DNA of 64,000 bases from Amphiscolops sp. MND2022 (taxonomy: Eukaryota): the NCBI GenBank assembly GCA_964187785.1, contig OZ076409.1, positions 9,674,001 to 9,738,000 on the forward strand. Reading direction: 5' to 3'. The notes below the pieces were generated by a model. The model saw only the letters and a list, made by a program, of their open reading frames with translations, made no database searches and was not told the DNA's origin. Of the stretch, positions 1-62,329 are shown in pieces; within the stretch, counting starts at the first letter, position 1; each line of letters begins with the position of its first letter. The position numbers and the translations under genes are program-made.

Positions 1-1112
1 GAGTGAGAAAATAATGTAATATTTGAAAAAGAAAATAAAACATAACAGTATAAAACTGAATGAACTTGGTACTGTCTCACTCAATCAGAATAGGCATCGA
101 ATACTTTCCTTTCAAGTGAAATATTTCAAGTCAAGTGGTTTATTAACTTGGACGGTGATGTTGCTCGGCGCCGCACTGGTACTATATGAAAACGATATGA
201 ACACTACAGTATAGCCCCAGTTTTGCACCGAGACGAAATTCGTCGTGTTACAATTGAAGAATTTCTGATTATTGATATAAATTAACGGATCTTGTTTGCT
301 AATACCCACCCCCACCCCACTCACAGGAAAATTTATCTGTCCCCAGAGTGTTTGCAGAAAATTGCCACCTTCACGGAAATTAATCAATTATTGAATCTAA
401 GCTTTCGAATGTTTCAAACAAAAACTATGAAGTCAGGTTCGTTCCACGCTTGTGTGAACAAGAAAAGGTGATCATTGATTGGAAAATGAAGGTTGTCACG
501 CTGCATGAACAACTTGACTTTCACTTCTAAGATCCCGGTCAACACGTAAAATGGCTCTATCCAAAATGAATTTAAGCAAACTCGTGACCATTACCAAAAC
601 TAAATGGGATACTGTGGCCCTTTATCAGTAAGCTGGGATAATTCCTCTGACAAAACAGTGAAAAAACGACTACGCTGAAAATCCAAAACTTTTAAGTGGG
701 AAAAGGGAAATAAGTTCGCGGGAGCCATTAGCAAACAATATCCAAATTAAACTTGATTTGACATATTTCGACTAGCACTTTCCTGAGGTTTATATAAAAT
801 GCAGTACATATAAGACTCATGATAGTGTCTAGATGATCTACGTTGAGCTAAAAATAGTTCCTTTTTCTTCAATATATCTTGTTATCTTGTTAAAATATCG
901 ATGTTATAAATCAATATAATACAGTACAGTGGCGTCTTTGGTGGCGTCTTTGAACCCTTAAACAACAAAAGACAACACAAAAATGTCTCCCCTTCTAGAT
1001 TATTTCAATCGTATTGCAAACGCAACAATAGTTTTTATATTCATTCCCATCAGGATGCTTCTTTATGCTGCTTTATTTTCTGCTGTATGAATAGGCCCCC
1101 ATTAGAAAAAAC

Positions 1113-1305
1113 TCGAAATCACATCGCGTTGCTATTTCACTTTAATTGACTGAAAATCACGCCGCATTACTATTTCAATGAAATTCACTGGGGAAAACCA
1201 CATCGCGTTGCTATTTCAATGAAGTTACTCGAAAATCACATCGCGTTGCTATTTCACCGAAGTTACTCGAAAATCACATCGCGTTGCTATTTCACCGAAG
1301 TTTGA
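1113..1305. repeat. Tandem array of ~38-bp unit (gaagttactcgaaaatcacatcgcgttgctatttcacc), ~5 copies
   Basis: Unit starts recur at 1221 and 1259 (period 38); the flanking units are degenerate. Confidence 0.9.
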
Positions 1306-1585
1306 AATTAGCTATAGGAAAAGCTGCTCTATAGATCGTTTTGAGAGTCAAAAATAGAAGCAGTAAATACTTGATTATTCGAGGCCAAGTTTCGAACCCA
1401 CAATGATGACAAAGCAATCAAATTATTAAATGTAAAGCGGCAAAAAGAACGAAATAAATAAATAATATTTGACAACAATTAATTGCAAACAACAGTAACA
1501 CAAATAGCAAGGCCTTTTCTCGAAGTTATTTTACTGAAATCAAGAAAAATATTTAGATCTTATTTCCGAAATAGGAAATATTTTA

Positions 1586-1655
1586 CCTGTCCGGGAATCG
1601 CACCCAAGACCTTATGGTTCGAAAGCTAGCGCACTAACTATTTGGCCATAGCGCC
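1586..1655 (-). repeat. tRNA-derived sequence (pseudo-tRNA or SINE head) between the two 38-bp arrays
   Basis: Reverse complement GGCGCTATGGCCAAATAGTTAG...GGGTGCGATTCCCGG has A-box-like and B-box-like motifs, but the acceptor stem does not pair. Confidence 0.5.
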
Positions 1656-1704
1656 TTGAAAATGAACAACTAAAATTTGCTTTTAATCTTATTGCTTGTC
1701 AACA

Positions 1705-2016
1705 AAGTTACTCGAAAATCACATCGCGTTGCTATTTCAATAAGTTACTCGAAAATCACATCGCGTTGCTATTTCACCGAAGGTAGTCGAAAATCACATC
1801 GCGTTGCTATTTCACCGAAGTTACTCGAAAATCACATCGCGTTGCTATTTCACCGAAGTTACTCGAAAATCACACCGCGTTGCTATTTCAGATGAAATTA
1901 CTCAAAATCACACCGCGTTGCTATTTCATAAGAAACTGCTCAAAATCACACTGCGTTGCTATTTCACAAGAAATTACACAAAATCACACCGCGTTGCTAT
2001 TTCAATGAAAGTTTGA
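1705..2016. repeat. Second tandem array of the same 37-38-bp unit, ~8 copies
   Basis: Same aaaatcacatcgcgttgctatttca core; copies degenerate toward the 3' end; ends in agtttgaa like the first array. Confidence 0.92.
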
Positions 2017-4860
2017 ATTGTATTTAGAGAATTGATGATTTTTAGGTACTTTCCTGAAACCGGAGTCTTTAAGTCAATGAACTGATTGTACGGTCTCTAT
2101 ATAGTGCGTCCGGTCTATTAGGAATGGTTTTTCAATTGTCCGGTCCATTAGGAAAGTACCGATTTTTATTTTAAATAGAAAAAATTTTCAATGAAACCAT
2201 ATCAGCATCCGCAGGAGACTTGGGGGCAAACGATGGATAGAAAATTTTCCAAAAATATTTTTAACTTTGTGAAAATCAAGAAAAAGTGCAAATTTGATGA
2301 AAATTGTATCTTTTCTGTTATTCCCCCCTCCCCCAAAGTAAGCTCGGAAGTTTAATTCCCCACCACTATCAGTGATGATTTTCAGTTGCAGTTAGAGCTA
2401 TAAAATACTGCAATTCCATTGGTTGTTAATATTTATTCAATGATAATTTCTCTTGGCCGCTTAACGTGGTGGGGGGATTACCAGTAAAGATCCTGAAATT
2501 TTGTCAAATTTTCGTATTTCTAACTTTTGTAATTTTTCTCGCAGAATTTTCAAACAAACAATTTTGTAAATTAGAAAAAAGTCTAAGAAACTTTTGTAGC
2601 TGACAATTTTAAAGATATTTGAGTTTTAAATTCGCTATTTTGAGCAATGGAGTTGCGATCAGGGATTTGCATTAAAAGAATACATTATTAATGGATATCC
2701 TACATTCAATAAATGCATTACTTTGACTGGCATTTTCATTAAATACTCTAACTTTCAAACAACATTAATTAATACATTTATTGTACAATAAATTGCCGAG
2801 TTTTCATTTTTTTCTCGCCGTTGAGCACTTTTTGCACACTTTCTCGGTTACAGAATGAACCATTCTTGGTCATTCTTGGCGCTTATTGAAATAGTACAGT
2901 GTTTCATTTCAAAAATGATTTTCAACATTTTTCAAAATGGGGACATTTGCTCAGAGCCAGCAGTTGATATAGTTGATATCTGAGACCTATCCATAGATAT
3001 CTACAGATATGTTACACATATCAAACGCCTCCGCCTGCCAAGTGTTTAACTTTGGTGATCTGACAAGCGGAAGCTGTTGCTCTGAGCCATAGTCCCCTAT
3101 TCACAGTAAAGTAATTGGAATATATATACACAGTACATGTATACATTCCGCGCCGCGCCTCATACCACACTGTTACGAATGAAGTGGCGCTTGAACGTGA
3201 TAATTGGCATTTGAAAATGATGAAGGGATCTTTTCTGTTAGCACAAAAATTATTAATTGGTAGGCTTGTATTGCATTGCAACACAAAATTACCAACCCCT
3301 GGTTCCCCCACCAATTTAATACCCCCAGTTAAGAGGTCAAGTGAAATTATCATTGAAATAGTAGTATTAATAATAATATTTGTAATAAAAAAATATTTAT
3401 ACAATAGTGTAAGAAATAAACTGAACCCTTATTTGTAAAAAAAGAATTGGACCAAAACAAAACTAGCTCTGATTTCTGCTATCATCCAAGTTATTTGAAA
3501 ATCAAATAAACAAACATTCTGAAATTTTGTTGCGCACTTGAAATGTAAGTTTGCAAATAATGAAGAAACTTCTTAATTTCATTTTTGATTGATTGTATTT
3601 ACTACTGAATTGGCATAGGGGACATCATTTTGGACAATTTTGTAACATTTGGCACCTAATTTGGAACTTTTATTTATTTGGCAGACACTTCTTCATTTAC
3701 TGAAGCCATTCATTTTTTTTACATTAAGGTAATTGGTATTTTATAGTTTTTGAAAGGGGTTCTCTTCTATTACATTTTATTTACTATCTTAATACGTGGG
3801 ACACAGCTATTTTTCGCAAAGATTGGGAATTATGCTTTCGGTTTTAGATTTTTAACCGATAAAATTATAATCACGAGAATCTGCTAACTAAGGCGATTAT
3901 GCCCATTATCTTAGACATTCAATTTATCCTTGCTATGTTTACATGCAGTCCAAATTATTTCTCACAAATAAGGGTTCAGTTCTTTTCTTACACTATTGTA
4001 ACTCTAACTGCACCTGAATGAAACTCATCGTTGATTCTGGGGAAAATTACAATTTTCGCTCTTACTGTGAGGGGGATTGGCTTTGGTAAACAGAAAAGAT
4101 CCTGATAAAGTGTTTGAAATAAAAAACATGAGTACAAAATCATTCAATACGTGGAAAACACTTACAATTGATAATCATATAATAAATCCAATAAAGAAGT
4201 ACATGAATATACATTTTATGTCCCTCCAAGGCCTAGTGAAAAGTGGGGTCTATGCAAGGTTGTAAAAATAAGTATTTTTAAATAAATATTTTTAAACAGA
4301 TATAATTATTTTTCGACTCAAACAGTTTAGTGAACAAACACGGTCAGCTGTTTATAACGGGGCTGTTTATAATGGCGTAAAAATGTTTCATAGCGGCTCT
4401 CAACTTTTATGTCCCACCAAGGCCTTTTAAAAAAGGGGTCTATGTCCCACTAAGCCGGCTTTGCATAAACAAGTGAAGAAGTTTCCTGGAAATGATATGT
4501 ATTTATAATGATCACCAGAACAAAAAGTCTTATTGGTATTCACTGATTACCGTTTATAGGTTTTTTGTACTGATGGTTGATTGAGTGACATGTTGTAAAA
4601 AAGCAGGTCCATGTCCCACCAAGTGCGTTTTGGTCCCCACGGTATTGTAACTATTGAAGCACGGCCTAACACCCAGTCATGCCAGAATTATCAAGATATT
4701 GATGAATTGACTACATTGAAGACTCATACCAATGAAAGAATCAAACGCATTTAAAGTGATATAAACAAATCACAAACCTAAAAAATTCTACGGGAAAACA
4801 AATTCAGATAAATATATAGATGAAAGTCTTTAATAACGTATCAACTAAAACTTGTTTCAG

Positions 4861-6833
4861 AACGTCAGAAGGGCTCATTCCAATGCAATTCTTGTGGGAA
4901 GATACTAACGAGACATTTCGATTTGCTCCGTCATCGACAAACAAATAAACAATGTAGAGGTCTGCAAGCTAGAACCACATCGTGTATTACAACTCCAGTA
5001 GATGTTCCTGTTGATGTAACCGGAGATGATGTACCTTCTCCCGAACCCGATGCTGCAACAACTTCTCTCGACAGGACACCCAGAGTTAGCCCTGAAAGGC
5101 AACAGTCTGTTCCTCCCCTAGGAGAACTTTTCGGTGAAACAGTTACTTTTGAAGAAGTAATTGCTTCTGGTGAAGTGTTTCCCCCCGAATTAATAACCCC
5201 TCCTAGAGAAAGAGAGACTGCTCGTGAAGTGACTGCTCGTGAAGAGACTGCTCGTGAAGAAGAGACTGCTACTGAAGAAGAGACTGCTCCTGAAGAAGAG
5301 ACTGCTCCTGAAGAAGAGACTGCTCCTGAAGAAGAGACTGCTCCCGGAGGAGAGATTGCTCTTGAAGAAGAGACTGCTCTGAAAGAAAAACAAAAGATAC
5401 CGGAAATTGAACTGCCGTATTTAGATTCCTTCAAATGGGGTTCACACAATCGTTCCAAAGTTGGGTCAAAAAAGTTTTTGGATTTAATTCGAGGGAAAGT
5501 ACCAGTCACCCAAAGTTTCACTGTCAACAACCGCCAGGATTTCAAGAACCGAATGACGAGAAGTACACCATGTCCTGTAGTTTTGAGACAAGCTAGGGGC
5601 AAACTTGCTGGTCTTGTTGTTCCTAGTGCCATACACGGTACCTTCCGTAAAATAACTGAGGGAATCCCTTGCAGCAGGAAAGTAAATGTGTGTTTTTCAG
5701 CACTCCAGGAAGTGGAGAACAATATGACCTTGGCAAGTTTTTTGGGGCATCATGAAGACCCATTCCGCGAGCGAGATCTTCATCCAATGAACATCATCGA
5801 CCTTGACATTGGTCCGCATCAGAGGACAATGAAACACACATTTTCGATTCCAAACTTGATAAAAGAATATTCTCTGGGTCATACTTACACCTCAAGAATG
5901 GATCCCTCAATCCGAGAAGAGTTTGACTTCACTGCTGGCATCAGCAATTACCTCTTGATGACTGAACAGGAAGCACAGACGGATTGGCATCAGGATTTCA
6001 CCGGAACTTCTGTTTTTTACTTTTTGTTGAAGGGAAGGAAAGAATTTTTCATCGTGGAGCCAACCCAGAAAGCCCAACAGCGTTTTGACGAATGGCGAGA
6101 GAGTGAATGGAAAAGGTTTGTTAAAAGGAAAACTCAGTTTTTACTTCAGTTTAGATTAATAATTGTGATCTTTTTCCTTATTGTTAAGTTGTAATTGGTT
6201 ATGTGATTGTTGTCAACAACTGTTAAAAGCTGAAGGTTATGACTGAAGATATTTCCAAAAAAGGGTTTGCTTTTCACGAGTTACAAGATACCTTCAAGGG
6301 GCTGAAACTTCTTAGAAAATTTCCGATGTTTAAAGTAGAAGTTAGTTCTCTCAACTTTGATTAATGTTGTTTTCAGCTCCACTTTCTTCGGTTTCCATCG
6401 AGATGTCACATGCTATCATATTGTGGTAGAAGAAGGAGACGCTATCTTCTTACCAAGCCAGTGGATTCACTTTGTTCACACCCCTGTTGATAGCATTGCT
6501 TATGCGTGTAACTTCATTATGGAAACCCACCTCCACCAGAGTGCCCTAGCCTTCAAGAAGGAGCTAGACGCAGGTTTGGCAAGACGTTTCTTGTTCCCAA
6601 ACTTCCCAGGTTTGATAGTGATGCAGCTCTACATGGAATGGGCTAATAAAAACCGCGTGAGTCCTATCACGAAAGCCGCCATGCGTGAGATGCTGCAGAT
6701 CATAAAAGCTGATGAGCGACCAACTGGTAAAGAATTTCCGCTGGAAAATCCCTGGGCAGAGTTCTTGTATCGCTATGCAGCAACTGTCAGCGACTTGCAT
6801 TGGGATGTAATTGAGGAGTGGCTACAACGTTGA
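4861..6833 (+). CDS. Zinc finger + JmjC histone demethylase (KDM2/KDM7-like); exons 4861-6115 and 6377-6833; first coding exon not located
   Basis: After acceptor tttcag(4860): FQCNSCGKILTRHFDLLRHRQTNKQC (C2H-type finger). JmjC motifs TDWHQDFTGTSVFYFLLKGRK and FLPSQWIHFVHTPVDSIAYACNF give an intact HxD...H triad. Phase-2 GT-AG intron 6116-6376 joins the exons in frame. Confidence 0.88.
5214..5380 (+). repeat. Coding minisatellite (15/18-bp units) encoding acidic EETA(P/R)E repeats
   Basis: gaagagactgctcctgaa repeated within the JmjC exon. Confidence 0.9.
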
Positions 6834-7023
6834 GGAGAAACAACAGAGTCCAGAAAGTGCAGCTTGAGGAAGTCTTCATTTTCAGTTTCAAAACTTGATT
6901 TTCGGCTCTTTATTGACTGATGAACATGCAAACAGTTTGCTTTCTTTATTTAGTGTCATGTGTTTTTTACTTACTGAGCACTTTTGCTTACTTTTTTTAC
7001 TTACGTAGTAAATACTATACCAG

Positions 7024-7422
7024 CAGAGGTGTGATCGCTAACAATTTTATCGCAAATCGCTAACATCGGTAATGGCTTGATTTCATCTCTATCGCTACAA
7101 CAAAATGGGTGGTTCGCTAACGCTATCACTATTTTAAAAACCTGATTTTCAGAAAGATCATATAAAAATTTCAGAATGTACTTTAAAATTAATAAATTTT
7201 GAAGTTTTGGGCAAATTGTACTTCGCCTACAAAGCCGGGCTCATCGAATAACTGTTCGAAAGGAAAAAGCCAAAATGATGTGTCAAGTTATTCGCAATAA
7301 TTTTTTGCATTAGTTAATTTTGAATTTCTAGTTGAAAACATGTTCGCTAACGCTTTAATTTGTCGCTAACTATCGCTATCGCTAATTCATGCTGAATTGT
7401 CGCTATCGCTGTCATACCTCTG
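7024..7422. mobile_element. hAT-like MITE between the JmjC and SET genes
   Basis: TIRs cagaggtgtga / tcatacctctg; 8-bp flanks tataccag (7016-7023) and tatacaag (7423-7430); many internal tcgcta motifs. Confidence 0.8.
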
Positions 7423-7789
7423 TATACAAGGTATAGAAAAAAATCGAAAGTTTCTTATGATGAATGTACAAATGTTGTGGATTTTGAGAATTCAAGAGAA
7501 CAATTGAGGCAAAAAATTCAGCCTCAACTCTGAATTTGCTCAATGATTCTTCCGACTTGTAGGCTACGTGTAACTTTGTTTTTGCTTAAATCAATTGTTA
7601 CTACCTTACAGAATCTGGAAGTATCAGTTGTACTAATGGTCTTTCGTAATTAAAGCATTTCTTCGGAGTGGTTTTTTAATTCAATGTTTTGTAAGCTTAC
7701 AAATGTACATCGAGTTCACTAGTGAGATGGGGTTAGAAACGATTTCTTGTCTGTCAGGACTTCTTTAAACGTAACTTTCTAGGACTTGA

Positions 7790-10700
7790 ATGTCAACAAG
7801 AAGTGCTGCCCGGAAAGCAGAGCCCTGGAGCTCTTTTCTTTACTCAGACCCAGAAGGCTTCCAAGTGAAAACTGTACAGTTTGCAAACGGGGCCACGGGG
7901 CGAGGGCTTTTCGCTAACAGAAGTTTTGACGACAAAAAATTTTTGCTCACTTACTGGGGACCGAGAAGTACAACAAAAACGACCAACTTCGACTATGTGA
8001 TGGAACTGCAAGAAGGGAAACAAGCGGTATTCATTGACACTTCTGACGAAAAGAATTCAGGAATGGCTCGATTCATCAACGACAAGGACAGAGCAGTGGC
8101 TGCTAACTGTCGGATGAAGAAGGTCACTGATGACCAAGGTAGAAACCATTGCATCTTCCTGGCAACTCGCCCGATTCAGTCTGGTTAGTTTGTTTTTTTT
8201 TACAAGACAGAAGGCCATTTAAGGCACTGAGTGTGAGTCCCACCAAGTTCCAGTGAAAAAGGTATCAGTGTCCCAGCAAGTGTTGATCAAAGCGTAACGA
8301 TACATTGAACGGTTTTGCAGTAATACACACTTGGAAGTACCAGGCTATTATTTTACACTGCCTTAACGGTTTCGTAGCAAATTCCAGGCATTTTGCACTA
8401 TGTTTCGTATGAGGTACCACCAAGGCTGAGTAAAAAACGGAATCTATGTCCCACCAATTCTGGTATCGTAAACGGCCTTATTTTTGCACGGCCTTAACGG
8501 GACATCTGAAAATTGAAAAACACTGCCTATTGCCGAAGTTTCCACCGAAGTCATTTTTGTGAGACAATTAAAAGAAACAATTCTCAATTGATCATTCTTG
8601 TTTATCCGTTCATATTCACAGGTGAGGAGTTGCGCTATGATTATGGTTTTCCTCATGCAGAATGGAGACGAAATCCTCAAGCTCCGGGAACCAAAAGTAA
8701 TATAGATAATATAGAAGCCGCTGATTCCAAAAACAAAATATCTCGTAATGTGGACGAGCCCTTCATAACAGTGACAAGGAAGAAGAAACTGGAAACTCTC
8801 TTCAAACAATCTGGACCTGAAAAAGAAAAACCCGGTGATTCCGAAAAAAGAATTTCATCAACAACGCAAAGAAAAGGAAAAGAATCTGAAGTTCCAGTGA
8901 AAGAGGTTTCCAATTTGTATCCCAATCTTAGTGCGAAGAACCTCACAATTCCACTTCAGCCTGTGCCATTGCAATCATGCAACGAATCTAACAACATTGA
9001 GATACAAAACGCAGCGGACACAGTAGAAAAACCTCCTAACACATTACACAACAATGCGGGGGACACGGAACAGAGGATCTCAACAAAGTCATCGCAAAAC
9101 CAATCTAGCAAAGTTGAGAAAAGCAAAACTACTGACACAGAAGAGAAGACTCTTAACCCGTTACGCAAAGAAGGGGACACGGAACTGAGGATCTCAACAA
9201 AATCATCGCAAAACCAATCTAGCAAAGTTGAGAAAAACAAAACTACTGACACAGAAGAGAAGGCTCTTAACCCGTTACGCAAAGAAGGGGACACGGAACC
9301 GAGGATCTCAACAAAATCATCGCAAAACCAATCTAGCAAAGTTGAGAAAAACAAAACTACTGACACAGAAGAGAGACGGGGGGCCACGGAACCGAGGATC
9401 TCAACAAAATCATCGCAAAACCAGTCTAGCAAAGTTGAGAAAAACAAAACTACTGACACAGAAGAGAAAGCTCCTAACCCGTTACGCAAAGACGGGGACA
9501 CGGAACCGAGGATCTCAACAAAATCATCGCAAAACCAATCTAGCAAAGTTGAGAAAAACAAAACTACTGACACAGAAGAGAAAGCTCCTAACCCGTTACG
9601 CAAAGACGGGGACACGGAACCGAGGATCTCAACAAAATCATCGCAAAACCAATCTAGCAAAGTTGAGAAAAACAAACCTACTGACACAGAAGAGAAGGCT
9701 CCTAACCCGTTACGCAAAGACGGGGACACGGAACCGAGGATCTCAACAAAATCATCGCAAAACCAATCTAGCAAAGTTGAGAAAAACAAAACTACTGACA
9801 CAGAAGAGAAGGCTCCTAACCCGTTACGCAAAGACGGGGACACGGAACCGAGGATCTCAACAAAATCATCGCAAAACCAATCTAGCAAAGTTGAGAAAAA
9901 CAAAACTACTGACACAGAAGAGAAAGCTCCTAACCCGTTACGCAAAGACGGGGACACGGAACCGAGGATCTCAACAAAATCATCGCAAAACCAATCTAGC
10001 AAAGTTGAGAAAAACAAAACTACTGACACAGAAGAGAAGGCTCCTAACCCGTTACGCAAAGACGGGGACACGGAACCGAGGATCTCAACAAAATCATCGC
10101 AAAACAAATCTAGCAAAAATGAGAAAAACAAAACTACTGACACAGAAGAGAAGGCTCCTAACCCGTTACGCAAAGACGGGGACACGGAACCGAGGATCTC
10201 AACAAAATCATCGCAAAACCAATCTAGCAATGTTGAGAAAAACAAAACTACTGACACAGAAGCGAAAGCTTCTAAACAACCACGGAAACCGAAGAATGTA
10301 ACTAGAAGCATTGAAGCATCGTATGCCAAAATGACTGAACTAGAAGGAAGAAAACCAAAAACACCTTTTGGAGCCAAAAACGAATGTATAATACCTCAGA
10401 AGGTAAGCACAATTTCATTAATTACCCGTTTAAGATTTGAAATTACTGACTTTTTGAAAAATCTTTTTTTGGTTGCGTTTGCACCTCAAAGTGAAAACAA
10501 TTTGATGGCTTTCATGCACCTCATTCATTGAAGTGCCACAGGATTTTAAAATCATGCTGGTAAAAGTTTTTTTTTTAATTGTTAAGTTTAATCATGTGAA
10601 AAGAATTTTGCATGTAAAAACAAACGCATTGTGGACGAATGTAGATTATAATGCTTCATCATCTGGAAATAACCTCAATACAATTTTAGTCCAAAAGGAA

Positions 10701-13700
10701 GCCACTGTGGTTTTAGAGCGAAATATTTTTTTCGGAACTGTGTTGTTCCCGAAAGAATAAGATTCTCCCTTTTTAAGCAGTTGGAGCTCTCTGAGGGAAC
10801 ATCAAGGGCTTTGAGAATTCTCAACAAAGGACGCGAATACTTAACGCCGAAGCCTGAGGAAGATTTGGATTCTGACTCAGCCGAAGAACACAGCAACATA
10901 CCTGAACAATCAAGCGAGAGTTCCAGCGACGATTCGTCGTCGGAAACATCTGAATCTTCAGGTGAAAGTTACATTGTTGATGAGGATGAAGGTAGCGAGG
11001 AACTGTCTTCAGAAGAAGAAACAGAAACTGCATCAACAGCTGAAAGAGCGCCAAGTACGCCCAATAAAGTTTCATCAAATCAGACAGTGGTATTGGGAGA
11101 AGGCATTTCTCAGATCAGTGAGAGTAGTTATCAGACCGCACTAGCTTCAACGTCGTCTACAAGACCAGATGATGTTGCAAACACTATGGACGGCTATGAT
11201 AACATTGAAGACGACATGCAACAATATGTCAACGCTAATTGTTCCGGAAAATGGAGATTCAACTCAAAGTATCTCAGGAAGATCCAGATTGTTGTCTCTG
11301 AAGGTAAATACAAAAAGAAGAAATGTTGTCCTTACTGTCCTTTCGAAGATATCAAAGATGCGACAATGGTCGCCAAATTACATCGCCATTTGCAATCATT
11401 CCATCAAAGAGAGCTCCGCGTCAGTAACCTTAGGCGAATAAATCTAGAAATAGAAGAATTAGAAGGAAGTAAGGAAATCGCGACAACTGAACGCGATTTG
11501 AGGAAACTTCATAAAGAGAAAGAGCAAACATACCGCTTGATCACATATGAAGGCCAGTACAAATATAACATCGCGGTTTTCAAAAAATGCATAGATACGA
11601 ACAGATTCACTGACAAACTGATCGTAGTCAGGGACCCAACGGAAACGGAGAATCCAACAGCTGATAACTATGCTCCTTGTCCTGATTGTCTTGGCTTCTT
11701 CATGAGAAAAACCATGTACCGGCACAAACTAGACTGCCCGGCAGTTACCAAGTCTAGCCATAAGGAAGGAAAAAACAAAAACATCAAAGCTGCCATCTTT
11801 GCGTTGATGCTTGAAATCAAAGCAAATCATAACACACCATTCCAGGAATTCCTTTATAACAATTTAAGAAACGATCCAGTTGCAGAACTAATACGAAATG
11901 ACCCCCTTATAAAGTATGTTGGGGAATATTATTTCAACAAGCGAAAATCAGACGAAGGCTACAATCAGATCAGGGACAGAATGCGAGTAATGGCCAAACT
12001 TGTTCTCCAACTGGAATGCTCATATTTGATTGAACTAATCAGACCAGACATGTGGTCAAAAGTGAAAGAAGCGGTGTCAAAAAATTTTGCAAAATCCTAC
12101 CAAGTGAAAATGGGATCGATTCTGAAAACAGCTGCTGCATTTCTGCAAAATCAAGCTTTCGTGTGGGAGAAGAAGGAGATATCTCAACAAGCTAAACAGT
12201 TTCAGAAAATTATTGACACTGAATGGGCTCAAATATCCGCACCTGCTAAATACGAGTAAGTTGGAACCATTCAAAAACTATTGAGGCAAATATTTACAAA
12301 AAGTATCGAATTTTGGCAAAAATTTGAAAAAAAATTGTAGTTTCGGAGTGTGAGAAACGTAGTGGAACTTTGTCTAAAATAGTTACTTAGCCAATTTCAG
12401 TCGTTTTGCTCTAGTCCTTATAGCGGGCCCACCTTTTATGTCTCACTTAGTGTGCGTCCCACCAAGGCCAAGTAAAAGAGCGGGTTTATGTCCCACTAAG
12501 TCTGGTTTGCTCAACAATTCAAGTAAAAGAAGCCACAATGTAAAAAGTTGCTCCACACGTTTTATTTAGGCCCCCTAAAACTAGCTGATAAACGTTTTCA
12601 GCCTTTTCTTTCCCAAATCTAATCACCTTGTGTTTTTCTAGGTTGGTCAAGAAGCAAAATGAGAGCATACATCTGGTTATTCCCACTACGGACATCATTA
12701 AATTCCGGCAAAGCATTGGAAAAAAAGTGCGAGAACTCCTCGAACTGACTAAGTATAACTATGCCGAACTCAAACTAACTGTGATAGCTGATCTTGTTAG
12801 TTTCAACAAGAAGCGTGATCGTGAAGTTTCTGGAATCAAAAGAAGAGATATGATACTACAACGGAGTCTTGCCAGTGAACGAGCAAAGACAGCGGATAAC
12901 GAGCTCGTGAAGCTTACAAAACTAGAGGAAAAGTTCGCAGAAGTCTACACACTCCTCCGACTTCCTGGTAAGGGAGGAAAAGTTGTCCCTGTGCTGGTGC
13001 CACCGGACACACTCAAACTTATTGATATCATGATAAATGATGACAACTTGAAAAATGAAACGTACTTCTTCCAAACAGAAGGTGGAAAACTGCATTACCG
13101 GAGCGCTGAGGCCCTGAACAAGTTCGCTAAAGACTTTGAGCTGGAGAACAAACCTTTGTTCAGGTCAACGAAGCTTCGAAAGTATATGGCGACAGCAGCA
13201 CAGTTTTAGAACTTACCACAGCACCAGAGGACTTGGGTTGCTGATTTTCTGGGTCATGACTTAAGGGTTCACGACAAGTATTACAGGATGCACACTGATG
13301 CCTTAAATCTAGCAAAAGTTACAAAATTGTTGTATATGGTCGACAGCGGTAAACTCGAGGAAGCCTATTCGAAAGACCTTGACACAATTCAACCAACACT
13401 GGAGGATGGCGAGTTGGACGACTCGGTTAGTTTTGTAGTTTTTGAAAATATCAGTCCGGATTAAATAAAAAAATAGGTTTTGATATTTGTACTATTGCAA
13501 TAAAGAAAATCCCCTACGGGTCCGGGAATAATCTATCGAAAAAAACAAAAACCCACTGAAACATTACATGCTGGAATTCAATTTCAGTTATAATTATCAT
13601 AAGTATAATCATAACATGCAATCCAACGCTAGTTTGTGAAGATGAAGATATTTGATTGGGAATTGGTTAAAAAGAAACGCAATGTGATCTAAAGTCGATT

Positions 13701-14717
13701 GCTTCAGAACTTGGTCGTCCAAAGTCAATGAACTCAATATTATTTGCTCCATCTGGCAAATCTGGAAAACATTGATTTTCAAGAGATCAGTAACTTCGTG
13801 TCCAGTTTTAACATAGCACGCGGAAAAGAAATTCAAACCTATTCAGGAACTGTCATCAACTGGAAAGAATAGATTTTTTCTTACCTATTTTTTTATAAAG
13901 CCAACCATTGATTCTTCTGATTACTTCAGATAACAGTACAATCAATTTCATTTAATTCGTAACCGGATAATTCGGATCTTCGTTTATTTTCGTATAAAGT
14001 TTCTACTGAAGCAATACAAACCTCTTCTTCACATTGCGTTTCTTTTGGATCATACTCCCAACGAAACAATACACATCTTAATTGTGCATAATACACATGC
14101 ATCTAGGCAATGCAGGCCTATTCTCTATCACGTCGCGTTTCTTTTCAAAACTCTCTTTTCAAAACATCAAAGAGTATTGTAACTTTTAAACTATAAAACT
14201 TTTGAATTTAAAATTATAAAATAGTAACTTAGCCAAAACAAAGTCGTTTAGTTAGAAACAGGTTGACTTCATTTGAGTAATTGGAATTTGTTTTTTCAAG
14301 GATAACGAAACCGAAGTCCAAGACGATACCAATCATGCGAGATCCGGTGACGGCGCAGAAAATTCACTGAGAAGGTCCAATGCCTCAACCTCGGGAAGCA
14401 AAAACAGTCTCTCACTTGGAACAGGCGATGGTGACACGGGTGACATTTCGGATGAATTTAATACAACAATCAAAAGGAATCGAAAGAAAACTACTGGTGG
14501 TAAGAAAAAGCCTAAGCCTGGTGGTACTACACGACGAACATGGCCGCTGGATCAAGAAAAAAGGCTGAGGAAACAATTCCGAGAAGAGATGAAGCAAGGA
14601 CGACTGCCTGGCCGAGCAGTTTGTTTGGAGGCAATGAAAAAATATCCCCATGCTTCAAAGTGGCAGGATATCAAAGATAAAATACGGAACATGACCATCA
14701 GTGACGCAAGAAAATGA
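7790..14717 (+). pseudogene. SET domain - repeat - zinc motifs - tyrosine recombinase - Myb-like fusion gene; exons 7790-8183, 8622-10402, 10781-12255, 12642-13425, 14301-14717; single in-frame TAG at 13207-13209
   Basis: All four GT-AG introns are phase-consistent. SET motifs GRGLFA, MARFIND and spliced IQSG|EELRYDYG. YR motifs FNKKRDREV, GKGGKVVPVL, STKLRK, FLGHDLRVHDKYYR. C-terminal RRTWP...LPGRAVC...WQDIKDKIRN. Confidence 0.88.
9059..10268 (+). repeat. Coding tandem repeat, 114 bp / 38 aa, 11 units
   Basis: GDTEPRISTKSSQNQSSKVEKNKTTDTEEKAPNPLRKD repeated; unit 3 has an in-frame 21-bp deletion. Confidence 0.95.
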
Positions 14718-15218
14718 TCAGTTATCAGTGACAGGATAACAATAATTGAAGGATAAAGTCATATGAACTTTCACTCGAGTATGAAACTTACCTTTTCAAA
14801 CAAATCCAGGTTTTACGATACTTGACTTGAGTTGTAACAACGTTGTTTGGGCTGAATAAAAGATTTGCAATGACTTGGATTTTTAATTTACCAGTCAACT
14901 TGTTACTAGCTAACTGTGTACTGTCAAGAGTAAAGTATATGAAAATTATTCAGAAGGTGTACAAAAAATATGGGGTTACCGAGAAAATTTTATCTGTCAC
15001 TTTGACTAAAACCAATGATTATCAGTACCTTGAGTCCATTTGAAAATTGCCCAAAGACTGGTCACCAGGGATTGAAAAATATTAAATGCGTGAACAATTA
15101 ATAATTAAAGTCAATATAATGACTGCAATAAATTTCCAGCCAATTTCGTTGTGTCTTTGCTCTCTCCAATGACAGAGTTTCATTCGTAAAGAATAACATT
15201 CGGAAAACAGAATTATGT

Positions 15219-16165
15219 TTTGAGGTCCCACCAATGCATGTCAATAAGTATTCTTGATAGCTGAAAATCGCTGAAAAGATTTTGTGTTAAGGTCCCACCA
15301 ATGCATGTCAATAAGTATTCTTGATAGCTGAAAATCGCTGAAAAGATTTTGTGTTAAGGTCCCACCAATGCATGTCAATAAGTATTCTTGATAGCTGAAA
15401 ATCGCTGAAAAGATTTTGTGTTAAGGTCCCACCAATGCATGTCAAAAAGTATTCTTGATAGCTGAAAATCGCCAAAAAGATTTTGTGTTTAAGTCCCACC
15501 AATGCATGTCAATAAGTTTTCTTGATAGCTGAAAATCGCTGAAAATATTTTGTGTTAAGGTCCCACCAATGCATGTCAATAAGTATTCTTGATAGCTGAA
15601 AATCGCTGAAAAGATTTTGTGTTAAGGTCCCACCAATGCATGTCAATAAGTATTCTTGATAGCTGAAAATCGGTGAAAAGATTTTGTGTTAAGGTCCCAC
15701 CAATGCATGTCAAAAAGTATTCTTGATAGCTGAAAATCGCCAAAAAGATTTTGTGTTTAAGTCCCACCAATGCATGTCAATAAGTTTTCTTGATAGCTGA
15801 AAATCGCTGAAAAGATTTTGTGTTAAGGTCCCACCAATGCATGTCAATAAGTATTCTTGATAGCTGAAAATCGCTGAAAAGATTTTGTGTTAAGGTCCCA
15901 CCAATGCATGTCAATAAGTATTCTTGATAGCTGAAAATCGCTGAAAAGATTTTGTGTTAAGGTCCCACCAATGCATGTCAATAAGTATTCTTGATAGCTG
16001 AAAATCGCTGAAAATATTTTGTGTTAAGGTCCCACCAATGCATGTCAATAAGTATTCTTGATAGCTGAAAATCGCCAAAAAGATTTTGTGTTAAGGTCCT
16101 ACCAATGCATGTCAATAAGTATTATTAATAGCCAAGTTAAAGATTTTGTGTATGTCCCACCAAGG
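15219..16165. repeat. Tandem array of 67-bp unit, ~14 copies, each containing GTCCCACCAA
   Basis: ttaaggtcccaccaatgcatgtcaataagtattcttgatagctgaaaatcgctgaaaagattttgtg recurs with period 67. Confidence 0.95.
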
Positions 16166-16231
16166 GAAAAGTGTGTACGTCCCACCTTATGCCCGTTTCG
16201 TGTACGGACCCACCAAGTGCTACTTCGTACA

Positions 16232-16350
16232 CATGTGTGTGTGTGTATTTATATATATATGTATAATTTTTTTATAGATAATTATTGTATGTATACATAT
16301 ATATATATATATATAATTATTTTATATATATATATATTATATTATTAATA
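16232..16350. repeat. (TG)n/(TA)n microsatellite tract
   Basis: Directly visible dinucleotide runs. Confidence 0.9.
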
Positions 16351-17549
16351 TGACAAATTGCATGACTATCGGAAAAATAACAGTCATGTTCTAAAAATAG
16401 ATAAGTACTAATCTAAAGATAGCATCACCTATTTATAGGTTACATGACGTACTGTCCTAATGGCCACATCAAAGGCGTTACACCGCCTCGTTCATCTGTT
16501 TCAACTAACGCCCTCAAGGGACAATTGTTTTTTTATGATTATGCTAGCAACACTACATGTAACATTCATGCAATAATTACATGTTTTGATCACACTCGTA
16601 TGTACCTTAGAGAGGAGAGTTTGGACTTTGGCCAAATACGGCCTTTGAGCCGAAGAGAGGGTATCAGATGTAGCACCTTTATTTGTAAGAACGTAATTGC
16701 ACGCAATACTATTCTTCAAATTAAGTCTCTTACCACAATCACGAAAGCACCGGTCAAATTAGACTCAGTGTCCCATTGCCTGAACAAGTATATCAATATT
16801 TGAGAATAAACGGCGCGTGGCCATAATGTCCACTAATATTAGCACTGTATTAGAGTGCTCAGCTGAATGCTGAGATGTGGTTGGTTGGAATTAATTTGGA
16901 CTGCTTGTCCACAGCGACAGGAGAGGAAACACTTTGAACTCGTTTCCTCTACCTGTACGCTTTGGTGTCCTATTCATAGCACATCTAATTACATTTACAT
17001 GTTTTAAAATGTAATTAACAAGCAATACTGCAACTCACTGTATGCAACTACATGTTATAACATAAACCAGTAATACAAAACAGTTGTATCGTAAAAGTTT
17101 TAATTATGTTCGCCTTGGACTTCTTGGACTTCTTGGCTCAACTGTTGGTATTTCCTCAATCTAGCGGAATTGTTCCTGGTAGGGCCCTGCAATAACCATA
17201 TGCGACCGTGTACCAGTTACCATCGCAGGCGGCCGCCTGCGACACTAAGCAACTAAGATCCGATCCTTCGAAGAAAACCCCACCATTCCTATCCGCCGAG
17301 CAAGCAGAGCTTCTCTTATACTGACCTCCAATATCTGCAGAGGGATCCGGAAAGTCGGTAACTTCAAACAATATAAAACCATGGAGGTACCCCCGGAAGC
17401 TTCAAAACAGGAATACTATTTCACGCTTATTTTGCGAGAACGATCAAGTTTTTGATTAAAAATGGTACGTTTTCCGGCCGGATAGCTTTTCACAAAAATC
17501 ACATACTAGAAGGAGTGTTAAGCGATGATTATGAGGAACAGTAGTTCTA

Positions 17550-17850
17550 TAGAAAACAGAACGTAATATCCTGGGTTTTCCTGGGATGGGTGGCGGAGCT
17601 ATGGGACCATTCTTGTTCATCAGTCCAGTCTGGAGATCCATCCATGCATGTGAAAAAAATTTGTCTCTGGAAATCTTGCTGGGAAAAGTTTTGTCTATTA
17701 TGGCAACTAAGCGTAATCTGCGTCATATATTGTTCATGCATGACGGAGCGACCGCTCATAAGACTGATAAAATCCTTTATCGGGCAGAAAGCAGTTTTAG
17801 GATGAGTAATCAACCGGAGAGCTTCAGTCGTTTGGCCGCCGAGACGTGAA
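17550..17850 (+). pseudogene. Degenerate Tc1/mariner-superfamily transposase fragment
   Basis: GPFLF...LFMHDGATAH followed in another frame by VINRRASVVWPPR, matching the QDGAPAH...WPPRSPD region. Confidence 0.6.
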
Positions 17851-18439
17851 ACATCCTGTACTGTGCAAAGCCTCATGGAAAAGGTGAAATAAGGGAAAAA
17901 AGAAGCGTCAGGTTCAGAACAATTTCAAGAGCCGTCGCAACAACAGAACAGGGTCTCAAACATTGACATTCCTTTGAGAAACGGTTGACCCAGGCAGAGC
18001 TACCAGCGAGCAAGTTTATGAAATGACCTATTCGAAATGCATCCAAACCAAAGTTCCAAAAAATCAACTTCCTCGAAATCCACATTAAAATCTCAAAAAT
18101 TTGTTTTTCTTCTCAAATTTTGCCTTGAAAAATCGAACAGCCGGTTTTGATAGGCTTACCAATGGACGGGTTCCAACGATTTTACAGACAATTTTATTTT
18201 AAAAACCAGTTAAATGTTTATGAAACGGCAAGGAAAGTGTTTTTGTTTGGTTATGGTATTACTGGGCCAGAAACCAATATGGCCGGAGTACCAATTTTTA
18301 GTCGGCGCCTTTTCCCTTAAGGTAAAAAGCCCGACTCTTACAGTGAGTAGTTTTTTTTGTTTTTTTTTTCAGTTGACAATTTGACTCTGAGTGGTCCACT
18401 TTTCTTACAATTTGTTCATCTTTCATATTTGTTCATCTT

Positions 18440-18802
18440 CCATCTTCGACCAAGCCGGAGAGCGTGGGTTCGATTCTCGGACTAAACCATAAATTTTTTA
18501 GTGCTTCCAAAAGTACATGTGAAACCAAAGGGTCCCCCCTTTGGGTTTTTTTCGGCACTATGCGACTTTTTTTCGAAAATTTTCGAATTTTATCAAAGGG
18601 CATTTTTTTGAAGTTTTCGGTTTGTAAAAAACGTTGAATGAGCCTAAATGACCTCTTTTTAGGTTTTTCGGCATTGTGCGACTTTTTTACCAAATACTTT
18701 TTTTGGAAAAAAAAACTTTTTTTCCAAATATTTCCAATAGTTGTTCCTTGAATATTTTGGAGCCTAAGATATGGCGCCGACTTGGGACGTTCCCGTCTTG
18801 TT
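18440..18802 (-). mobile_element. Helentron-like non-autonomous repeat, partial copy
   Basis: Reverse complement begins aacaagacgggaacgtcccaagtcggcgccatatc, shared with copies at 21290, 23146 and 30903. Confidence 0.6.
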
Positions 18803-20434
18803 CATCTTAGTTAAATTCGATCTTGGAATAAGTATAATTCTTAGTAGGATATCAGTAAGAATCTCGCCATGGGATTGATGGCCGTACAGATTCAGTAAGA
18901 CTTTGGCTAGATCTTGCCAGGTAAGATTTTGGCTAGATCTTGCCATGTCAGACAATATCTGGTCAACCCTGGTAGTCTTCAAATAAACTCTATGTCCGTA
19001 GACCGCTTCTCTGTATTGAAAGAGTAACCAAACTTGTCTTTAGAATTTCTGGATGAATTTGATTTTTCGCCTTGGAACGTGGTATTAAGCTAATACTTGC
19101 TAAATAATTGCATCTTCTGTGAATTATTTGTACTTGCAGTTTTATTGCAATCAATTAGGGTTTACCCACAAAATTGAATTTAGATTTTCAAAAAATTATT
19201 TTCCCCCAAATTCATATAAACGTTTAAATTGCATTGACATTCCATGAATTTTACTCTACAACTACTTTGAATGATGGAAAACAGAGTAAAGCACATTTGA
19301 AAACACAAATGTTCTCAAACTGGCATATGTTTAGTTCCATAAAAGACAAATGAAACAGGTGAAAATAATGAATAACTTTAGCATTTGGAAATCGTCATCT
19401 TTCATTTTTTTCCATTTTTAATGAGTTTGTTTGATCATTGCAGTTTCATATATATTAATTCATTAACGCAGTCTCATAATTCCGAAAACAGAAAAGGACT
19501 TTATAGCTACGCTAAGTGATGCTTACCAGCCGAAGGAAAAAGAATTTTCGGGGCTATGAGGCCAGAAATTTACTTCAGAGATTTGAATTTCCTGAGCTAT
19601 GTATGGTGTACAATTATGTGAATTCACAAGCTGAAACACAAATGAAGCAGTAAGTGCATTGGTGATTATAATTGATTTCAATTTTGTCCTCCAGCAATAA
19701 AACGCGCTTTTAAAGCCAAAACGAATGTTTTCATGAATGAACAACCAAGTCAAGTTCAGAGCGCTTGAAATCGTATCTTCGAGAGAGAAATCCAAAAGCA
19801 AAAAGCAGTCAACATTCAGATGGCATTATGCTAAAAAGTCAGTGAAAATTTCACTCAATTACGACTTTATTGATTACGTACCAAATAACATAAGAGCAAA
19901 TAACAACAAAATTAGTCCCATTTAACATAAAAATGAAAATAGTTTCATTTAACATTAAAAAACCGAATACCCGGTTAAGCAATCCAACTCACGAAATTTC
20001 ATCTGTAATTTTCTCCTTTCCAATAAAATAAACTTTTCCTTTCTTTTCTTTTCAGACTTTTTTCAGTGAATCTTTTGAGCTGTGAATGCTTTTGACCAAA
20101 GTTCCTACAATATTTGATTCTTACAATATTTGAAACTAATCTAGTTTTTATGTTATTTGCTCTTATGATATTTGGGAATCCATCACTTTATTCCCCCAGG
20201 TTTCTCAGATATTCACGCTTCACGCAGTGTATTGCTTAGATTTTAAAAAATACTCAATGTGAAATACTCAAATACTCGTTCCATGCTGTTTGGTTAAAAA
20301 TGCAAGTTTCGTCGATAATTGATTTTACTTGTTATTATTGTAGTTAAAAGTAATTTTTGGTCGATGCTTTTAAAAAGTTTACTTTGACTATTGCTTAACC
20401 CCCTCGCCTATTTTTATTATTACTCATTCGAAAG

Positions 20435-40989: not shown

Positions 40990-41183
40990 TGTGAGAGAGT
41001 GCACTCTCGAACACTCAAACTAAAAAAGAAACAGGTTGTGTAACACTTTATTAAAGTTGTTTACCAACAAAAAGAGTGCTCACAAGAAAAGTGAGAGCGG
41101 CCATTTACCATATGGTCTACATACAATACAGTATTAACAGCTCTATTGTTTTGATTCTTCTTCGAGATAGCATAGCTATAACA
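40990..41183 (+). repeat. 5' LTR
   Basis: TG...CA ends; one visible mismatch to the 3' LTR. Confidence 0.96.
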
Positions 41184-42478
41184 TGGCGCTGCGAGACAAT
41201 TCTTTTGAATCCAGCGGGAAACAAACCACAAGCAGTCCGTCAGCTCTGGCGGGACTGCCAGCTTATTGGGAGTGTCCAGAAGTACCACCTAAAGCAGAAT
41301 GGGAAAAGTGGTGGGAACTTTTCGTAATGGCAATAAACGCCAAACATGCAATATCAGTTACCGAGTTACTTAGAACACCTACCGAAAACAGCCCACGACA
41401 GGCAGCACTACTAAACAATCTAAACGAACAGGCCGCAGAACGGAAAGTTGTCAGCATTTTATTCTTATCACTAGGAGTGGCCGGCAGAAAGAATCTAACC
41501 GACAAATTTCCGTATATGACGGTAGCCACAGCATCACTAGCAGAAATCAAAGAAAGTTGCGAGCAGACGTTTTACAAACCCAGGAATAGAACCCTGGAGC
41601 GATACAAATTCTTCGCACAAAAACAACAGAGTCATGAGTCGTTGAGACAATTCTGGAATATCCTCACGGGATTAGCGGCAAGATGTGAATTTGGTGAACA
41701 AACAGAGGGACTTATCATGGACGCATTTATCCAGAACATGCGACACAAGACAGTACAGGAACGCCTGTGTACTGAGCCAAAAGAAAATCCACAGGAAGCA
41801 CTGCGATTCGCGATCGCATATGAAGAAGATATAAGCCAACAAAAGAATTTCGCAGGAGGCGCAGAAATAAAAACAGAACCAGTAATGGCAGTAGAAGGAA
41901 GAACAACAAGAAATCCATGTACACGATGCGGGTTCGAATTTTCGCAAAACCACTTAGCAGCATGTAAAGCGAAAACAGAGAAATGCAGAAACTGCGGAGT
42001 AACGGGACACTTCGCAAGAATGTGCAAGAGACCAAGAGCTGGCAACTCGCGCGGAGCTGGCAGAAATCAAAATAGTGTCAACATGCGGAGAGTGAACATG
42101 ATTGAACAACCAGCCGACCAATCAGGAGGCAGCTCGGAATGGGACGAGGACAACATTGTACTACACGTAAACGGGGTAGGTGTTAAACCATTTGTGTTGA
42201 AAGGAAAGATAAACAAACAACAATTTTCAACCATGATAGACTCAGGGTCGCCCATAACGATCTTCACGAAGGAAGACTTATGCCAAATACTGAAAACAGA
42301 CCTAATCTTTGCAAGACCCCTCCCGAAAAACGAAGAATACGTTGACTACAACGGCAGACCACTTAATCTGGTAGGATACATCACAGTTGACGTAGAAGTG
42401 GGGAAACAAAAGATGACACGAGCACGCATAGTGATATCAAGAGACGGGAAGAAGTCACTGATTGGTCGCGACTGGTAA
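41183..42478 (+). CDS. gag: Gag plus aspartic protease
   Basis: CCHC knuckle CRNCGVTGHFARMC; protease MIDSGS...LIGRDW. Confidence 0.92.
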   Translation: MALRDNSFESSGKQTTSSPSALAGLPAYWECPEVPPKAEWEKWWELFVMAINAKHAISVTELLRTPTENSPRQAALLNNLNEQAAERKVVSILFLSLGVAGRKNLTDKFPYMTVATASLAEIKESCEQTFYKPRNRTLERYKFFAQKQQSHESLRQFWNILTGLAARCEFGEQTEGLIMDAFIQNMRHKTVQERLCTEPKENPQEALRFAIAYEEDISQQKNFAGGAEIKTEPVMAVEGRTTRNPCTRCGFEFSQNHLAACKAKTEKCRNCGVTGHFARMCKRPRAGNSRGAGRNQNSVNMRRVNMIEQPADQSGGSSEWDEDNIVLHVNGVGVKPFVLKGKINKQQFSTMIDSGSPITIFTKEDLCQILKTDLIFARPLPKNEEYVDYNGRPLNLVGYITVDVEVGKQKMTRARIVISRDGKKSLIGRDW

Positions 42479-62171: not shown

Positions 62172-62329
62172 AGGTTCATACCAGATGAAAAGATTAGGAA
62201 GAAAGCGAATCAGAGAATAAGAAAGAAGCTCCGACAACTGAAAGTGTCTCAGTAGGTTAGTGATCTGTATTTTTTCTTGGTCTTCGAAAACCTTAGTTGG
62301 TTGGGAAACCTTGAGATTTTGAAGTGATT

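Follow-up and report, generated by a model that had tools for sequence, protein, structure and literature searches.

A JmjC gene as probable cargo of a Crypton-type tyrosine-recombinase transposon in Amphiscolops

Introduction

Anti-silencing factors of transposons include the plant VANC proteins and the factors of DNMT- and TET/JBP-carrying elements. The gene family described here bears on whether animal-type transposons encode erasers of histone silencing marks.

Two kinds of described system are relevant. In KDM2A, the Fe ligands are H212, D214 and H284, the methyl-lysine pocket consists of I144, Y199, L201, F215, D214 and N298, Y222 is also named, and S145 is required for turnover of H3K36me2 (Cheng et al., PMC4197961, available text). 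A perspective gives PHF8 equivalents for four of the KDM2A pocket residues and states that this type of pocket is inactive on trimethyl-lysine (PMC4197959, available text).

Cryptons are described as single-ORF elements (PMC9406493, available text). The extra cargo reported for them is a C48 peptidase; this, and not SET, is the cargo of CryptonS, while the animal CryptonA and CryptonI are described without a C-terminal domain (PMC3212892, available text). CryptonV is a Repbase class (PMC5753468, PMC4455052), the families of which insert into microsatellites (PMC8869645), as stated in the available parts of these sources. In zebrafish, Crypton-H families are among only eight DNA-transposon families enriched for H3K9me3 (PMC10942377, available text). 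The terms JmjC, demethylase and methyltransferase have no occurrence in PMC3212892, and SET domain and demethylase have no match in the available text of a 2026 Crypton paper (PMC13465315). The article texts searched describe no transposon or Crypton with JmjC cargo, the words being co-mentioned only as unrelated terms in PMC9406493; an earlier description may exist elsewhere.

Results

Content of the window

The window analysed is a stretch of 64,000 nt from Amphiscolops sp. MND2022 (contig OZ076409.1, positions 9,674,001 to 9,738,000), with a GC content of 36%. This composition, the introns and the relatives found are suggestive of animal DNA. The features of the JmjC locus are collected in Table 1. 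Elsewhere, the window holds intact-looking, overlapping gag and pol frames of 431 and 1,231 amino acids (41183-46086, plus strand), which we take from their motifs to be Ty3/Gypsy-type, and a decayed relative of this retrotransposon broken into several frames (34494-37689, minus strand). The plus strand also carries a glycosyltransferase family 10 (fucosyltransferase) exon (39980-40531; Pfam E 4e-36), a 203-amino-acid open frame without Pfam match (61554-62171), and a PHD finger (E 1.2e-7) followed by an ORF1-like frame (62328-63294). The latter pair probably represents a non-LTR element and has no connection with the JmjC gene.

Table 1. Features of the JmjC locus and the adjoining SET/recombinase gene (window coordinates)
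Feature	Position	Strand	Basis or remark
Left motif cluster (4220, 4411, 4444, 4613; two 33 nt apart)	4214..4640	+	Subterminal region or first JmjC intron
JmjC gene, large coding exon	4861..6115	+	Acceptor 4860/4861, phase 1
Single zinc finger C-x2-C-x12-H-x6-C	4884..4955	+	Ligand pattern, sub-threshold Pfam, relatives
Acidic EETAPE linker, 18-nt minisatellite	5213..5383	+	Tandem array
N-terminal half of KDM2/KDM7-type catalytic domain: HPMNIID, NYLL, T, WHQDF (5985-5999), Y, K	5400..6115	+	Alignment
JmjC intron	6116..6376	+	Absent in subfamily C relatives
Last JmjC exon: third Fe ligand (WIH 6462-6470), pocket Asn, helical domain, stop	6377..6833	+	Pfam, PHF8 alignment
SET exon 1	7790..8183	+	Pfam SET E 3.2e-7, above cut-off; completed by GEELRYDYG in next exon
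Second 10-nt motif cluster, two pairs 33 and 34 nt apart	8231..8460	+	Within SET intron 8184-8621
Exon 2: SET end, then 114-nt coding array (9059-10266, 10.8 copies)	8622..10402	+	ORF, tandem repeat
Exon 3: acidic stretch and Cys/His-containing region before recombinase core	10778..12255	+	Acceptor 10777 or 10780, predicted
Third 10-nt motif cluster, pair 34 nt apart	12450..12500	+	Within recombinase intron 12256-12641
Tyrosine-recombinase catalytic exon, R..K..STKLRK..LGHD..Y	12642..13425	+	Motifs; one in-frame stop 13207-13209
Last exon, small C-terminal domain	14301..14717	+	tblastn of P0156, E 1.5e-4
Right-end 67-nt tandem array, 13.7 copies (15212-16132), unit holding the 10-nt motif, plus trailing motif copies	15212..16220	+	
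(TG/TA)n microsatellite abutting right end, candidate insertion target	16226..16342	.	

The JmjC gene encodes a single finger and no reader domain

The two exons of the JmjC gene splice to 569 codons with no internal stop. The intron (261 nt, GT..AG, phase 2) is confirmed by intronless relatives (P0001), which read straight through the exon junction. The large exon opens at an acceptor of phase 1, indicating that at least one upstream exon is missing. Relatives of every subfamily first become alignable at this same acceptor, and the sequence upstream of it diverges freely, so that an upstream exon must exist. The preliminary description had failed to locate this first exon, and our search fared no better: 10 and 3 ATG-donor combinations were enumerated upstream, none of them convincing. 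ATG 4820 was rejected as the start. This ATG is in frame in P0162 but not in the present copy, and other relatives do not conserve it; we therefore read the sequence around it as intron. An AATAAA lies 3' of the JmjC stop, at 7191.

The zinc finger and the EETAPE minisatellite reported earlier are both present, the former inside the open frame 4824-6194 and the latter as an 18-nt array. Pfam zf-C2H2 matches the finger below threshold (E 0.016; 16.1 bits versus a cut-off of 25.2). The finger is nevertheless not a chance pattern, since CxxC-x12-H is found in all 43 relatives that keep the upstream QKGxF anchor, and no relative covering the site departs from any of the first three ligands (53/53, 56/56 and 56/56; most of the 294 relatives examined are too short to reach the finger). 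The fourth ligand varies, with H-x3-C in 21, H-x5-C in 19, H-x4-H in 11 and H-x6-C in 1 of 52. In the model of a relative, the finger forms a hairpin and a helix (block pLDDT 60-76). Retargeting by a DNA-binding finger, as put forward in the preliminary description, is a conjecture for this one finger; single CCHC fingers often bind protein or nucleosomes instead of a DNA sequence. The position of the linker is occupied in relatives by unrelated low-complexity sequence, and the linker of the modelled relative has pLDDT < 50.

No PHD, CXXC or F-box was detected in the JmjC gene or in its full-length relative P0001, in agreement with the preliminary description. A PHD supplied by upstream exons, as in an ordinary KDM7 orthologue, was likewise not seen: none of the 57 plus-strand frames of at least 25 amino acids between 4860 and the window start has the pattern. 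Across all six frames of the window it occurs once, at 62379, in an unrelated element 57 kb from the JmjC gene. On the C-terminal side, the helical domain is the last one before the stop at 6833; P0001 and P0002 end in the same way, with no CXXC, PHD or F-box.

Fold and active site of the JmjC domain

The spliced JmjC read-through matched PHF8 (E 3e-23), KIAA1718 (E 1e-20) and KDM2A (E 1e-14). For structure comparison we used an AlphaFold model of the intronless relative P0001, with a catalytic core mostly above pLDDT 80. This model scored Z 32-35 against KDM7/PHF8/PHF2 (KIAA1718: Z 35, rmsd 3.4 over 345 residues) and Z 30-33 against KDM2A, versus Z of at most 21 against KDM6 and JMJD5. Foldseek agreed with a KDM2/KDM7-type fold. 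Thus, the structure prediction proposed in the preliminary description yields a fold like that of PHF8, KDM7 and KDM2.

The intact Fe ligands and the 2-oxoglutarate residues T and K noted earlier were borne out by the PHF8 alignment, with WHQD at 5985-5996 and WIH in the last exon. Among relatives covering each site, the Fe ligands are kept in 151/157 (H), 146/157 (D) and 50/51 (H), and the 2-oxoglutarate residues in 158/162 (T) and 137/152 (K). This conservation spans subfamilies that are only 42-50% identical. KDM2A residues I144, Y199, L201, D214, F215, Y222 and N298 all have identical counterparts in this JmjC, as read through the PHF8 alignment. The position of S145 is taken by Asp, which would alter peptide specificity relative to KDM2A. 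Pfam JHD was absent in all element-family members scanned and present in all cellular enzymes scanned.

Judged from these residues, the JmjC protein is likely to be an active lysine demethylase. KDM2A and PHF8 are confined to mono- and dimethyl-lysine by a pocket that is conserved here, from which we infer an Fe(II)/2-oxoglutarate demethylase acting on the same two states.

The neighbouring gene combines SET with a predicted tyrosine recombinase

A SET/recombinase gene starts 956 nt after the JmjC stop, on the same strand. Its spliced product is predicted at ~1,617 amino acids, containing a single stop in the catalytic exon. Among PDB sequences, the SET domain weakly matches KMT2A and KMT5A (best E 0.018), and the SET exon alone had no match. 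Features like those of exon 3 occur in eukaryotic clusters, mostly arthropod (0.95-0.97). The C-terminal domain of the last exon, which by resemblance may be Myb/SANT-like, recurs behind a distant recombinase relative.

The recombinase fold was tested on P0085, an open relative 97% identical to the exon of this copy. The model is weak (mean pLDDT 53; best Foldseek E 8e-3), with XerA, XerH, Cre and topoisomerase IB as top fold matches. Comparison of P0085 with the XerA profile gave E 9.8e-5. The 3' exon is thus predicted to encode a tyrosine-recombinase fold, by a low-confidence model with concordant matches. By motif analogy, R (95/96), R (93/106), Y (87/90), K (102/107) and H (88/92) are kept in relatives, but all 9 aligned recombinases have Thr where the HxxR motif would have its His. 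P0085 and P0153 had no Pfam match at E 0.05, including DUF3504, and the recombinase profile had none against PDB sequences.

The named relatives of the recombinase are uncharacterised teleost proteins at ~30% identity. Two of these, LOC120480105 and LOC107747529, may be CryptonV/H proteins, which would often carry SET. The codon corresponding to the stop at 13207-13209 is open in 105 spanning relatives (truncated copies uncounted) and encodes the same residue in 98. If the stop is real, this copy would be unable to move itself; its JmjC is intact.

A private motif ties the two genes into one unit

An exact 10-nt motif, with C or T at one position, occurs in 21 copies, all on the plus strand and all within 4411-16154. 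The copies lie 5' of the JmjC exon, in the SET intron, in the recombinase intron and in the 67-nt array past the last exon. The spacing of motif pairs (33-34 nt) is half the period of this array, and 4411-4478 matches 12456-12523 at 81%. With one mismatch, 10 copies were found in 4200-15200 versus a Markov mean of 0.33 (maximum 2 in 30 runs), and two strays elsewhere in the window. The motif ties the JmjC gene and the SET/recombinase gene into a unit of at least 12 kb, from about 4200 to 16230.

On the left side, only a short TA run (3121-3128) was seen. The left end would lie between about 2000 and 4200, a region of nested, MITE-like inverted-repeat arms within 2381-4018 (2381-2403/3996-4018, 2427-2465/3328-3366 and 3400-3452/3948-4000). 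A junction in P0207 that joins 3560-3661 to the JmjC was rejected as the left end, the stretch being inside the nested inverted-repeat element. No terminal inverted repeats were found for the unit, and neither reverse transcriptase nor DDE transposase was seen within it, leaving the tyrosine recombinase as the only mobilising enzyme seen. Rfam had no match in window positions 1-20000.

Both genes are multicopy and travel together in matched subfamilies

The JmjC and SET/recombinase genes are both highly multicopy in public assemblies. Clusters matching the JmjC number 14 among long proteins and 148 among short ones (of which 120 are among the matches listed), and the close subfamily occurs on 140 distinct contig sizes. 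Many of the matches are partial and 60-95% identical, a pattern that decay of element copies would produce. The recombinase exon search, which covered proteins of 143-457 amino acids only, returned 72 clusters, the nearest of which (P0085) has 255 members at 97%. Pooling of several assemblies from a single organism, if it occurred, would raise the copy counts, and some frame breaks may be sequencing errors.

Shared contigs were recognized from protein matches by identical contig size as a fingerprint. The comparison drew on the representatives of the clusters and, for 20 clusters, on up to 15 of the members listed. Of 107 recombinase-bearing contig sizes, 37 recur among the JmjC matches. A shifted-size control gave a mean of 0.06, which tests number coincidence only; chance sharing of a long contig is controlled by the subfamily table. 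On contigs with one subfamily each, like pairs with like ([[7,5],[0,17]], Fisher p 5e-4), also on contigs < 100 kb ([[3,1],[0,10]], p 0.011). Unlike subfamilies are paired on 5 of 29 unambiguous shared contigs. Sub-subfamily B2 occurs with B2 on five contigs, where the JmjC is 93-99.5% like P0006 and the recombinase 92-100% like P0094. In addition, P0229 runs in one frame from JmjC exon 2 (89%) into 8504-8699 (85%), and P0209 holds 8573-8812 and 5865-6188 in one frame. These two are deleted or rearranged copies that join the JmjC to the SET gene.

The intronless subfamily C (P0001, P0002, P0015-P0031) shares none of its 19 contig sizes with recombinase matches, and part of the JmjC family may therefore travel otherwise. 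It often has two or three JmjC matches per 13-36 kb contig, which suggests tandem arrays. A 38-nt satellite at 1116-1302 and 1705-2004 of the window matches in translation the read-through tail of the subfamily C copy P0026 (E 4e-6); in that copy the same satellite follows the JmjC stop. Beyond these assemblies, no related locus was confirmed in viral contigs (0 of 34 and 0 of 57 pattern matches) or in prokaryote genomes (0 of 34), and 2 of 43 were confirmed in metagenomes, both < 1.8 kb.

In quick trees the element JmjC branches outside the KDM7-like and KDM2-like groups

In a search of 1.84 billion representatives, the top matches were the element families, followed by scattered divergent proteins at 34-42% and, at ~30%, by cellular KDM2/7 proteins. 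The best named relatives of the JmjC are PHF8/KDM7. The element proteins and 10 divergent proteins share, to varying degree, HPMN..D-like and WHQDF-like motifs, and none of them has a PHD, CXXC or JHD match. The element motifs HPMN..D and WHQDFTG contrast with LNVISL and FHIDFGG in the cellular enzymes.

Trees were built from 69 of 99 extracted domains, after dropping 5 fragments and cutting the cellular rows to 55. In a quick unrooted tree with long-branch warnings, the element and divergent JmjC domains form one side of a branch (14 of 69 rows) with an SH-aLRT of 100. When long rows were removed, the element pair sat on a long branch outside the KDM7-like and KDM2-like groups. The phylogeny against KDM2 and KDM7 envisaged in the preliminary description thus places the domain outside both, although joining the pair to either group is not rejected (AU p 0.19 each). 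The capture of the JmjC is old. The earlier reading as a captured demethylase holds insofar as a multicopy family travels with the SET/recombinase gene; a KDM7 donor is one of two origins compatible with the trees, KDM2 being the other.

The distant contig L002 has a frame with a C2H2-like finger (Pfam match only E 0.45) and a Thr/Ala-rich linker (124-546) upstream of an HPMN-type JmjC exon (780-1568). Distant JmjC members sit on contigs too short to show their neighbours.

Discussion

Very probably, the JmjC gene travels as cargo on a DNA transposon of the Crypton type, which contains introns and encodes a tyrosine recombinase. The element would carry two genes on the same strand, one for finger, linker and JmjC, the other for SET, repeat and recombinase. 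The JmjC, without PHD or CXXC, may be placed by its finger on a long flexible linker, either on nucleosomes or on the motif clusters of the element, possibly via the recombinase protein. There the demethylase would strip repressive H3K9me1/2, H3K27me1/2 or H4K20me1 from element chromatin, and removal of the mark would allow transcription of the recombinase gene and make the element ends accessible. The H3K9me3 enrichment on zebrafish Crypton-H would provide a motive for such a cargo. However, with a pocket that excludes trimethyl-lysine, the enzyme could only intercept lower states or act on another lysine. We count this mismatch between the mark reported on Cryptons, H3K9me3, and a pocket type inactive on trimethyl-lysine against the proposal. 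The five contigs with unlike subfamilies, the contigs of subfamily C, the Thr at the HxxR His, the weak recombinase model and the Asp at the S145 position also weigh against it, and co-location is read from contig sizes. For an anti-silencing role of the JmjC we see even chances, and the explanation as a whole (Crypton-type cargo, mono- and dimethyl demethylase, placed by the finger, anti-silencing) appears moderately probable.

The main rival, which we consider unlikely, is that the JmjC and the SET of the element write and erase methylation at one and the same lysine, in H4K20me1 or in the recombinase, as a private switch for the timing of transcription or recombination and not to undo silencing by the host. 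The two domains lie in adjacent genes, the SET has a weak resemblance to KMT2A and KMT5A/SET8, and the peptide-contact residue of the JmjC differs from KDM2A. SET8 writes H4K20me1 and PHF8 erases it. However, SET matches with a best E of 0.018 are too weak for substrate assignment, and the named fish recombinase relatives, seen as proteins without their neighbourhoods, give no sign of a JmjC partner.

It is quite improbable that some other mobile or tandemly amplified unit, such as a satellite-associated array or a larger element, contains the JmjC and is linked to the recombinase in some lineages only. Subfamily C would fit this arrangement, with 0 of 19 contigs shared, multiple matches per contig and one copy running into the 38-nt satellite found here at 1116-2004, as would the distant members on contigs too short for neighbours. 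On the other hand, subfamilies A and B are each paired with their own recombinase subfamily, the 10-nt motif spans both genes, and a recombinase search restricted to 143-457 amino acids would miss a longer intronless partner of subfamily C.

Very improbable is an enzyme that acts in trans on host chromatin at large, or domestication of copies into a gene family of the host. Loss of the PHD removes normal KDM7 targeting, and KDM7 enzymes are described as promiscuous without it (PMC4197961, available text); moreover, the JmjC of this copy is intact beside a broken recombinase. Against this, many matches are fragments resembling decaying element copies at 60-95% identity, and the recombinase codon is open in 105 spanning relatives, with the same residue in 98. 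An ordinary host KDM7 or KDM2 orthologue with reader domains in upstream exons is largely refuted and barely credible: although its best named relatives are PHF8/KDM7, the first exon is missing from the gene model and either grouping has p 0.19, there are hundreds of copies at ~30% identity to cellular enzymes, with no upstream PHD pattern, no Pfam JHD and the derived motifs HPMN..D and WHQDFTG.

Returning to the Crypton-type cargo, the notable point is a recombinase transposon that carries both a demethylase gene and a SET domain. This suggests that the element is equipped to rewrite, with enzymes of its own, the chromatin marks by which it would be silenced. An intact demethylase is kept across subfamilies 42-50% identical, next to a SET-recombinase fusion, in a high-copy family. 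The proposal is open to direct test, since both enzymes can be purified, a candidate address motif is at hand and genomic copies run into the hundreds. In addition, exchange of the targeting module in a KDM7-like enzyme that lacks a PHD illustrates how specificity in this class is set by reader domains. Tentatively, and with more doubt than confidence, the family may represent an old eukaryotic recombinase-transposon lineage that overwrites host silencing with a self-addressed chromatin-editing kit, made up of the SET-recombinase fusion, the separate zinc-finger demethylase of the HPMN clade and dispersed address motifs. The HPMN-type clade, with a finger also upstream in L002, would then be a mobile-element-specific family present in several organisms.

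Comparison with known systems

The JmjC resembles KDM7 (PHF8, KIAA1718, PHF2, ceKDM7A) and KDM2 (KDM2A/JHDM1A) in fold, including the C-terminal helical part, in the Fe triad, in the 2-oxoglutarate residues and in the pocket. It differs from them in that one CCHC-type finger and a repeat linker replace PHD, CXXC and F-box, in its ~30% identity, in the Asp at the position of KDM2A S145, in the absence of Pfam JHD, and in being multicopy and element-borne. Similar to elements with VANC, DNMT or TET/JBP, a chromatin factor is carried together with dispersed element-specific motifs; in contrast to them, a histone-demethylase-type enzyme is paired with SET on a recombinase element.

The element shares with Cryptons (Kojima and Jurka 2011) a tyrosine recombinase as the sole mobilising enzyme seen, the lack of detected terminal inverted repeats and its multicopy state. 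Unlike animal CryptonA and CryptonI as described, its recombinase has a C-terminal exon; SET in front, the lack of a DUF3504 match and Thr for the His of HxxR are further differences from Cryptons. The teleost proteins LOC120480105 and LOC107747529 have the STKLRK, ADFLGHD and H..Y motifs in common with it. The right end of the unit adjoins a microsatellite, the kind of site in which CryptonV families insert, and the left side has only the short TA run. The JmjC cargo sets the element apart from CryptonV/H as described in the available texts. In conclusion, the JmjC works like KDM2/7 without being assigned to either, and the element works like a Crypton and may belong to one of the named subgroups.
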